57,248 nucleotides of DNA. Origin: Enterobacteria phage 2851. Below, piece after piece: positions 1-3,000 of this stretch. The DNA lies in sequence record NC_049943.1; one strand, written 5' to 3'. How positions within the stretch are numbered: position 1 is the stretch's first letter; every line of letters starts with the position of its first letter. Made by a program: the position numbers.

Positions 1-3000
1 CGTAATCGTGAAAGAGGAAGGTAGGTTGCTTATCTGTGTCTGTCATTGTCTAGCATTGTCCAATGTAGTTAATTAACTGTCTGTTATAACTCGAAAAACA
101 ACCCTTTTTTCACCTGAGTATGTCTACGAACGTCAAATATAGTTGTTTACTGTGCGCTGTTGTCCATGTGATATTGTGTACCAGATGTGTACCAAACCAT
201 TATTTCTGAGCGTACCAAATATTATTTATGGCTATAAGCGACACAAAACTGCGTACTATTTATGGTAAACCATATTCTGGCCCACAAGAAGTGGCTGATG
301 CCGATGGCCTCAGCGTACGAATTTCACCGAAGGGGGTCATCCAGTTCCAGTACCGCTATCGCTGGCATGGCAAGCCTAATCGACTTGGGCTTGGTCGATA
401 CCCATCCCTGTCTTTGAAGGATGCCAGACAGATCACTGCTGACTTGCGAAAGCTCTATTTCTCAGGAACGGATCCACGCACTTATTTTGAAGAGAAGGTG
501 GAGAACTCCATGACGGTCGCCCAGTGTCTCGACTACTGGTTCGACAACTACGTCTCTACAACTCTCAGAGAAAAGACCCAAGCACTTTACCGATCAACGG
601 TTATGAAGCGCATGCATGACGCCTTCCCTAATCGTCCGGCATCTTCTATCACGGTTAAGCAATGGGTTGACCTGCTTACCGAAGAAGAAAAAGATAATCC
701 ACGCCGAGCAAGGCAGGTGCTAAGTCAACTAAGATCAGCAATTAGTTGGTGCATGCGGCGTCAGTTGATAGATAGTTGCGCAATTATGAGCATCCAACCA
801 AGGGACTTCGGCTCCCGCGCTGAGGTAGGGGATCGGGTACTGTCGTATCACGAACTGGCTAAGATCTGGCTTGCTATTGAAAGAAGCCGTGCGTCTACGT
901 CAAATAAGCTCCTTCATCAGATGCTTATGCTGTGGGGGGCGAGGCTCTCAGAGCTTAGGCTGGCAACAAAGACAGAATTTGACCTGCTGGACAACGTATG
1001 GACCGTACCGAAAGAGCATAGCAAGATGGGTAATGTTATCCGCCGTCCAATCTTCGATCAAATTAAGCCTTTTCTCGAAAAGGCCATGACAACGTACAAT
1101 GATGTTCTTTTCCCTGGAGAAGACATAAACAAACCGATCAGCATCGCTGCAGCTAACCGATTTTTAAATAGAATAAGGGGAGGGATGGATCTAGGTTACT
1201 GGCGAACACATGATTTCAGAAGAACGCTTGTTACACGTCTGTCCGAGATGAATGTCGAGCCTCATGTTACTGAGCGAATGCTCGGTCATGAACTTGGCGG
1301 GATAATGTCCGTATACAATAAACACGACTGGATAGAGGCTCAGCGCAAAGCGTATGAGCTTCACGCTGATAAATTGTTCTGGCACATCAGGAGCATTTCT
1401 GATTAACGCCACCGTTAAGAATCCACCCTTCAACAGCTTCACGAAGGTATGATTTGGGGTGGGTTCTGACTGGCTTCGGAAATCCGTGCCGTTTGGTATA
1501 GTTCCAGATTGTCTGACGTGATGAAACACCGAGCTTGTTCATCACTTCTTTCTCAGGAATCAGGCTGGTATCGGTCATCTTAATTCTCCAGGCAAAAAGA
1601 AACCGCCATATAGCGGCTCTATCAGATATGAACAGGCCTCATCGAGTGTGAGGCGTTAGTCCTTGCGTAGCTCGCTGATTCTTCTGTAAGTCTCTGGTGC
1701 TTTGTTTCCGTGTATCTTCATTTCAGACTTCAACAGAGCAACGAGGGAATCCCATTCGTTGAGGATTCCTTTGAATGCCGGAACGCGCTTTGCAACCTTG
1801 TCGAATGAATCTCTGATTTCTGGAATCTGCTCAACAAGTGCAACGCATCGTCTGAAATCGGCTGCGTCATGTGGAGCACCGAAGCCATGACCATAGATAT
1901 TCTTTTTCAGGCCACATGCGATTGAGGCAAGAGTTGCGCTACTGATGCCGACATCGCCAGTTGATTGCCATTTCAAAACCTTCATAGCCAAATCTGACAT
2001 TTCTTGTCTCCATAAAACAAAACTCGCCGTAGCGAGTTCAGATAAAAGAAATCCCCGCGAGTGCGAGGATTGTTAGTTGCGCTCTGCTGCTGCCTTAGCC
2101 ATTACCATATCCACACAATTTCACCAGACATGATTCTCGCAATCACTATCATCACCAAAGTGATAATCACAACTTTAACTGGCGGCATCATTCACCATCC
2201 TGCTGCGGTGCTGCTGGATATACTTTTCTCATCCAATGCGTGGCGTCATGAATAACGAACTGATATTCATCATCAGTAAACATCGAGCCATCCCACTGTA
2301 GCCCGTCAAGAACACCTCTGGATGGAGAGAATACCCAGATATCGAAATCGTATTTCTCCGGCATTCGCTCACTACAGCTTATCCAACCATCCGGAGTTAC
2401 CGGAGAGTTGCCAGCCTTGCGCATGGCAATCTCCATGATTTCAACCATATCTCCTGGTGGAATTTTACAATGCTGACCAATATGCCTCTGCTGCCTGGCA
2501 TATTCGAGGATGTGCTCCAGCTTGATACGATTAATCATGATTTATCTCCCTGAAGCATGGCTTCGCGGCAGTCGTTCCAGCCTTCAGCATAATCACTATA
2601 CGCAAGAGGCCAACCGTTTCTGTATTCACGCGGCAACTTATCAGGCACTACCAGCGCTGGCGGCGCGGAGAATAGTGGTTTAGGTGATATTTCCGCACGT
2701 TTTGCGTATGCTTCAACTGTGTCAGGGTTAAACAGGATTATGTTTTCACCGCATTCTCACGCTATCGGTTCTGCTTCCAGCGATGCCAGTGCAATTTCAT
2801 AAGCACGGCGCTCAATATTGTCTCGAACGTCCAAGCTGCCTATGCGCTCTTTGATTTCTTTAATCAGTTCTTTGTCGGTAATAGTGGTCATGCCGCGTTT
2901 CCTTCTTTCTTATTAACAATTACACCGTCATATATTTCATTAAGGTGCCCTCTCAACTCCATGCGCCTTAATGCAGACAACATGTAATCGCATTCACTTA

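Follow-up and report, generated by a model that had tools for sequence, protein, structure and literature searches.

The 57,248 nucleotides of Enterobacteria phage 2851 (sequence record NC_049943.1; we call this whole stretch the window) are a Stx2c-type lambdoid prophage of Escherichia coli O157:H7. On the minus strand, in the exo-xis part of the early-left operon, lies a short gene cut in two by an in-frame TGA. Our explanation is a plain one, to which we give a probability of about 93%: a lineage-specific nonsense mutation has put a stop in place of Trp45 in an accessory gene that an O157:H7 prophage can do without. A single G>A transition is shown by alignment to have turned TGG into TGA, and the allele, as judged from its distribution, is inherited and common to many O157:H7 genomes. 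The internal-stop pseudogene itself is already known and annotated in both GenBank and RefSeq. GenBank records AP012538 and AP012539 call the TGA-allele gene a ‘hypothetical protein (pseudogene)’, and the RefSeq annotation pipeline (PGAP) labels it ‘internal stop’ in NZ_CP022050 (CEP72_RS31180).

The interrupted frame opens with an ATG at 2891-2889 (minus strand, as is everything in this paragraph), preceded at a distance of 8 nucleotides by a Shine-Dalgarno-like GAAGGA at 2905-2900. It runs for 44 sense codons (MTTITDKELIKEIKERIGSLDVRDNIERRAYEIALASLEAEPIA) before it meets the TGA at 2759-2757, which is codon 45. This residual open reading frame (ORF), 2760..2891, encodes the N-terminal helical module only. 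Past the stop the frame stays open for 73 more sense codons, numbers 46-118 (2538..2756), and closes with a terminal TGA at 2537-2535, so that the whole pseudogene spans 2535..2891. Its last stop shares an ATGA (2535..2538) with the start of the downstream DUF551 gene (ATG 2538-2536). Our starting point was a sequence-only reading of the phage, and its coordinates and description of the interrupted frame, overlap included, are correct by sequence and translation. Its denial of any in-frame start codon past the interrupting TGA is wrong to the letter, as GTG 2648, TTG 2636 and ATG 2558 all lie in frame there; in spirit it holds, none of the three being near the TGA and no Shine-Dalgarno sequence being visible before any of them. 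The layout alone proves nothing. Counted over its six frames, the window has 30 instances of an ATG-initiated frame of at least 40 codons that meets a stop and then stays open for at least 70 more, and 73 open codons would arise with a chance of about 0.02-0.03 at the composition of the window. With 30 occurrences in hand, we dropped the statistical case from the bare ORF pattern. It is the comparison with orthologues that decides.

That comparison begins with H0067 of VT1-Sakai (BAB19623.1; prophage Sp15), an intact gene of 357 nucleotides annotated at the same place, between an Ea22-like gene and a DUF551 gene and with the same ATGA overlaps. The two genes are identical at 356 of 357 nucleotides. 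The one difference falls in codon 45, which is TGG (Trp) in VT1-Sakai, hence a full protein of 118 residues, and TGA in the window; the base that changed, at position 2757, now reads A on the minus strand (T on the plus), a transition of G>A (C>T). The 73 orphaned codons are the same as those of the intact orthologue. The gene is also intact in phiSTEC801-Stx1a, where phiSTEC801_14, like H0067, has TGG at codon 45 and forms a 118-residue ORF, and the H0067 protein is encoded as well in phage YYZ-2008, Stx2a_WGPS8 and vB_EcoS_phi330. The same TGA as in the window, with 100% identity over 541 nucleotides (window 2450-2990), is found in Stx2c_WGPS4_05, in Stx2c_WGPS6_08/09 (the two GenBank records above) and at CEP72_RS31180.

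Further afield, HK022_36 (gp36, AUM59812.1) and its counterparts in Ayreon, Stx2c_2409, phi367 and PhiR47_1 are full-length genes at about 50-60% identity, with no stop at codon 45. Across six diverged or close homologues the residue at that codon is Trp in five and Tyr in HK022. The HK022, Ayreon, Stx2c_2409 and PhiR47_1 proteins (P22 EaA-like or DUF551-containing) share the N-terminal module, are aromatic at residue 45 and carry a GWNxCRxAML motif in the C-terminal part; their genes, too, lie downstream of an Ea22-like gene at this place in the exo-xis region. Some of these proteins (the longer, fused forms are those of Ayreon, Stx2c_2409 and PhiR47_1) carry DUF551 as an in-frame fusion, which brings them to 206-269 residues, whereas in the window DUF551 is a separate downstream gene. 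Measured against diverged intact homologues, the segment after codon 45 has a ratio of nonsynonymous to synonymous substitution rates (dN/dS) of 0.30-0.71, which tells us that this segment is protein-coding in the relatives. A genuinely short gene of 44 codons followed by non-coding DNA is thus not what the orthologues reveal: they encode a continuous protein of 118 residues, and the view that the window holds a single gene cut by an in-frame TGA is borne out.

How far has the stop travelled? We searched 5,426 complete E. coli genomes for exact matches to 61-nucleotide probes centred on codon 45, one for each allele. The TGA probe matched 109 records, all of O157:H7 type among the matches listed. 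The TGG probe matched 367 of the roughly 402 records holding the locus, O145, O111 and a pig isolate included. So wide a spread of TGG argues that it is the ancestral state and that TGA is derived within one prophage lineage. A query of 541 nucleotides over the gene was 100% identical to phage 1717, Stx2a_F349, Stx2a_WGPS4, WGPS6 and O157:H7 chromosomes, and among the homologues compared the TGA at codon 45 is absent from every one outside a single O157:H7 prophage lineage. No more than 28 records are without an exact TGG copy, and so an intact copy must be present elsewhere in at least 81 of the 109 that carry TGA. With an intact paralogue in another prophage of most carriers, losing the copy in the window is cheap. 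The same numbers dispose of an error of sequencing or assembly in the source record, a suspicion that a one-base difference from an intact allele naturally invites: the identical allele recurs in 109 independent records of complete genomes, as well as in at least six phage records that come from different laboratories, which excludes it, and we assign it a probability that is close to nil.

An in-frame TGA whose downstream codons are perfectly intact may also be one that ribosomes sometimes ignore. In E. coli, UGA is naturally misread mainly by tRNA-Trp, and background read-through of UGA in cells with wild-type release factor 2 (RF2) is of the order of 0.1-1%. As the ancestral residue is Trp, near-cognate reading by tRNA-Trp would restore the wild-type protein, and one could imagine a leaky hypomorph in which the stop tunes expression down and read-through supplies protein at a relevant level. 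We consider this very unlikely. No stimulatory structure or known element lies 3′ of the stop, the stop is conserved in no diverged homologue, and Trp-restoring read-through at background level would come with any TGG>TGA change, so that it is no evidence of design. Programmed read-through was rejected on the same two grounds, a stop not conserved among homologues and a stimulator that was not found.

Recoding of a more deliberate kind fares no better. A permissive Rfam scan in E-value mode over 2300-3100, a span that does not take in the esterase region discussed below, returned no selenocysteine insertion sequence (SECIS) or other element, only chance matches (E≥5.7), and the 86 nucleotides around and 3′ of the UGA (2690-2775) fold no better than their shuffled versions (z=-0.78). 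By ARAGORN the window holds three tRNAs, all within 22366-22609, whose anticodons are CAT, TCG and TCT; none in the window has a UCA anticodon (host tRNAs outside the window were not covered by this search). The phage tRNAs cannot suppress UGA, in keeping with the earlier judgement that they are unlikely to. (The CAT tRNA, at 22366-22441 on the plus strand, is called tRNA-Met by ARAGORN and tRNA-Ile by PGAP in the matching prophage of strain FDAARGOS_293. This is the tRNA of ileZ type known from Stx phages; the two tRNA-Arg genes (TCG, TCT) come next, and stx2 lies just beyond them.) TGA is put to ordinary use throughout: it ends 34 of the 51 long ORFs in the window, the interrupted gene and its Ea22-like neighbour included, and the interrupted gene itself uses TGG for Trp94 and Trp105. 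With no UCA tRNA, Rfam match, structure or avoidance of TGA to point to, selenocysteine, programmed read-through, a phage suppressor and codon reassignment are all left unsupported. Selenocysteine was rejected because there is no SECIS hairpin 3′ of the UGA and because the orthologues have Trp at this position (Tyr in HK022) and not Cys or selenocysteine; a suppressor tRNA or reassignment of TGA was rejected for want of a UCA anticodon in the window and because TGA is the commonest genuine stop.

What gave the idea of recoding its appeal was a second TGA-interrupted frame in the same element. A TGA at 25646-25648 interrupts the nanS-p-type SASA esterase frame (24806-26743, plus strand) within the SASA domain, and the sequence-only reading had implied a common pattern in the two frames. 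The comparison does not bear this out. Where the window has TGA in the esterase, TGC (Cys) is the codon in phage 06-3462, in Shigella phage 75/02 Stx and in O157 strain FDAARGOS_293. Of 612 E. coli records, only 3 have the exact esterase TGA allele (those of strains 10671, MB41-1 and Al Ain). The esterase stop is also present in AJ605767, an 8.4-kb fragment of phage 2851 that matches the window at 100%. FDAARGOS_293 pulls the two stops apart: it has the exo-xis TGA, together with a 5-bp deletion in the neighbouring gene, and an intact esterase. Different ancestral residues (Trp and Cys), different distributions (109 of about 402 records as against 3 of 612) and separability in FDAARGOS_293 make the two stops independent, and by these comparisons they are sequential nonsense mutations with no recoding pattern. 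Programmed recoding that linked them, by selenocysteine, a phage or host suppressor or TGA reassignment, would draw on the presence of two in-frame TGAs in one element and on the esterase TGA replacing Cys, the usual counterpart of selenocysteine. Against it stand the separable stops, the lack of a UCA tRNA in the window, the commonness of TGA as a stop beside TGG for Trp in the same gene, and an exo-xis UGA that replaces Trp and has neither a SECIS-like or Rfam match nor a stable hairpin 3′ of it. Already contradicted at the exo-xis locus, such recoding has a vanishingly small probability. Between stx2B and the esterase, we note in passing, the minus strand holds an ORF of 107 codons (24239-24562) whose counterpart in the matching RefSeq prophage is annotated as the anti-adapter protein IraM.

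The 5-bp deletion deserves a closer look. The gene upstream of the interrupted frame (2994..3398, minus strand) has lost CAGGT between 2997 and 2996 and now ends at a TGA at 2996-2994. Relative to the 171-residue gene of Stx2a_WGPS4, which overlaps the ATG at 2891 as ATGA, the shifted frame is 37 residues shorter and the coupling is broken. In an alignment that included VT1-Sakai, the deletion is present in the window and in FDAARGOS_293 and not in WGPS4. Translation of window 2888-3403 meets five stops, and RefSeq flags a pseudogene at this neighbour. A different indel affects the same gene in VT1-Sakai, and only 122 residues are annotated in phiSTEC801; the gene seems, on this alignment, to have been disrupted repeatedly. 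The 171-residue protein had no match in Pfam, NCBIfam or PADLOC. The prophage therefore carries three independent inactivating lesions, the Trp45 stop, the 5-bp deletion and the esterase stop. As WGPS4 has the Trp45 stop without the deletion, we infer that they arose in that order, with the esterase stop last and confined to a small sub-lineage; the deletion and the esterase mutation would then be further, later steps of the same decay of prophage genes.

What did the gene do before it was broken? The intact 118-residue orthologue matches phrog_5117 over residues 1-117 (E=5.6e-58, PHROGs profile search). It has no Pfam family at E≤1, DUF551 (PF04448) included, and no match in NCBIfam, PADLOC or a sequence search of the Protein Data Bank (PDB). 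Since only PHROGs families of unknown function were matched, we could not assign a biochemical function. The sole functional lead for the family, and it is a lead from sequence likeness, is the N terminus it has in common with YfdT of the cryptic prophage CPS-53 in E. coli K-12: residues 1-42 are 88% identical, whereas the C-terminal part of YfdT is unrelated to that of the window gene. YfdS or YfdT, together with YfdQ and YfdR, is required for the multicopy suppression of over-initiation of DnaA-dependent replication (PMC4776307). Residues 1-44 are likewise 84% identical to 933W-type EaA/DUF551 proteins. The first 42-44 residues form a portable helical module set on unrelated C termini in many prophage proteins, among them YfdT, EaA/DUF551 proteins of the 933W type and the forms in HK022, Ayreon and PhiR47_1. 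When the 541-nucleotide query was run against the 5,426 E. coli genomes, about 2,500 gave a match to at least a portion of it, and in most of the matches listed that portion was the DNA of the module.

The stop falls almost exactly at the boundary of this module, and the 44-residue peptide is predicted to fold as a single helix over residues 6-39 with a predicted local distance difference test score (pLDDT) of 85, a confident prediction that offers no fold for a structural search. One might then ask whether the truncated helix is itself the selected product, a dominant-negative or competitor peptide directed at proteins of co-resident prophages that have the same N-terminal module, such as the intact H0067 paralogue or 933W-type EaA/DUF551 proteins; most carriers do also have an intact paralogue. 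The argument is purely circumstantial. In a gene of 118 codons a stop would land at the module boundary fairly often by chance; few codons are a single step away from TGA, those for Trp among them, and the gene has just three Trp codons, number 45 included. That the phage carries two other inactivating lesions points to general decay. We regard a selected helix as highly improbable.

A nonsense mutation in a dispensable gene would work out as follows. Ribosomes starting at ATG 2891 would stop after 44 codons and free the N-terminal helical module alone. The C-terminal 73 residues would go unmade save for a small amount of read-through by tRNA-Trp, which would put back the wild-type residue. 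The mutation would persist because the gene is non-essential and usually backed by an intact paralogue in a co-resident prophage. Some points weigh against this account. We infer both the truncated product and the extent of read-through. Compared with VT1-Sakai there is no further substitution after the stop, so that sequence decay cannot confirm relaxed selection; all it reveals is a recent mutation. At 109 records the allele is also fairly common; that fits clonal inheritance, and a selective benefit of the truncation may still be compatible with it.

Exo-xis genes are reported to be non-essential in Stx phages and to modulate the choice between lysis and lysogeny (PMC10834534), and an effect of the broken gene on induction is accordingly conceivable. 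In such an event the freed helix might interfere with paralogous exo-xis proteins of co-resident prophages, or a trickle of Trp read-through protein might be made, and either might subtly retune induction or lysogeny in the Stx2c-type O157:H7 lineage. We think this very unlikely. On the reading we prefer, a nonsense mutation in a dispensable gene, the finding is of little consequence, being ordinary gene decay that is already annotated. The exo-xis accessory region of Stx prophages appears to be decaying stepwise in O157:H7, through the Trp45 stop, the 5-bp deletion and the esterase stop, and Stx2c-type prophages could be sorted into nested lineages with the three lesions as markers. In-frame TGAs in elements of this kind are best read as pseudogenisation unless orthologues say otherwise.

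It remains to place the gene among its neighbours. The cI-like repressor (10375-11073), N (8351-8692), RecT/bet, YqaJ/exo, a DUF1382 protein, a TraR-type zinc finger and an Ead/Ea22-like gene (3403-4347) are all on the minus strand, which puts the interrupted gene in the exo-xis part of an N-antiterminated early-left (pL) operon, as its assignment to an early operon had supposed. Immediately downstream is the intact DUF551 gene of 116 codons (2188..2538, minus strand; Pfam DUF551, E=4.9e-10; WP_000610373.1). Normally coupled in translation to the interrupted gene, it would lose that coupling. The polar effect should be mild or modest, since the DUF551 gene has a Shine-Dalgarno sequence of its own (GGGAG, 2550-2546, 7 nucleotides before its ATG), no terminator-like site was found on the minus strand between 2891 and 2535, and the operon is under N-antitermination. 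The early-left operon ends with an AlpA-type excisionase-like gene (1387-1578, minus strand), on which a plus-strand integrase (228-1406) converges with an overlap of 20 bp; in lambda, by contrast, int and xis run in the same direction.

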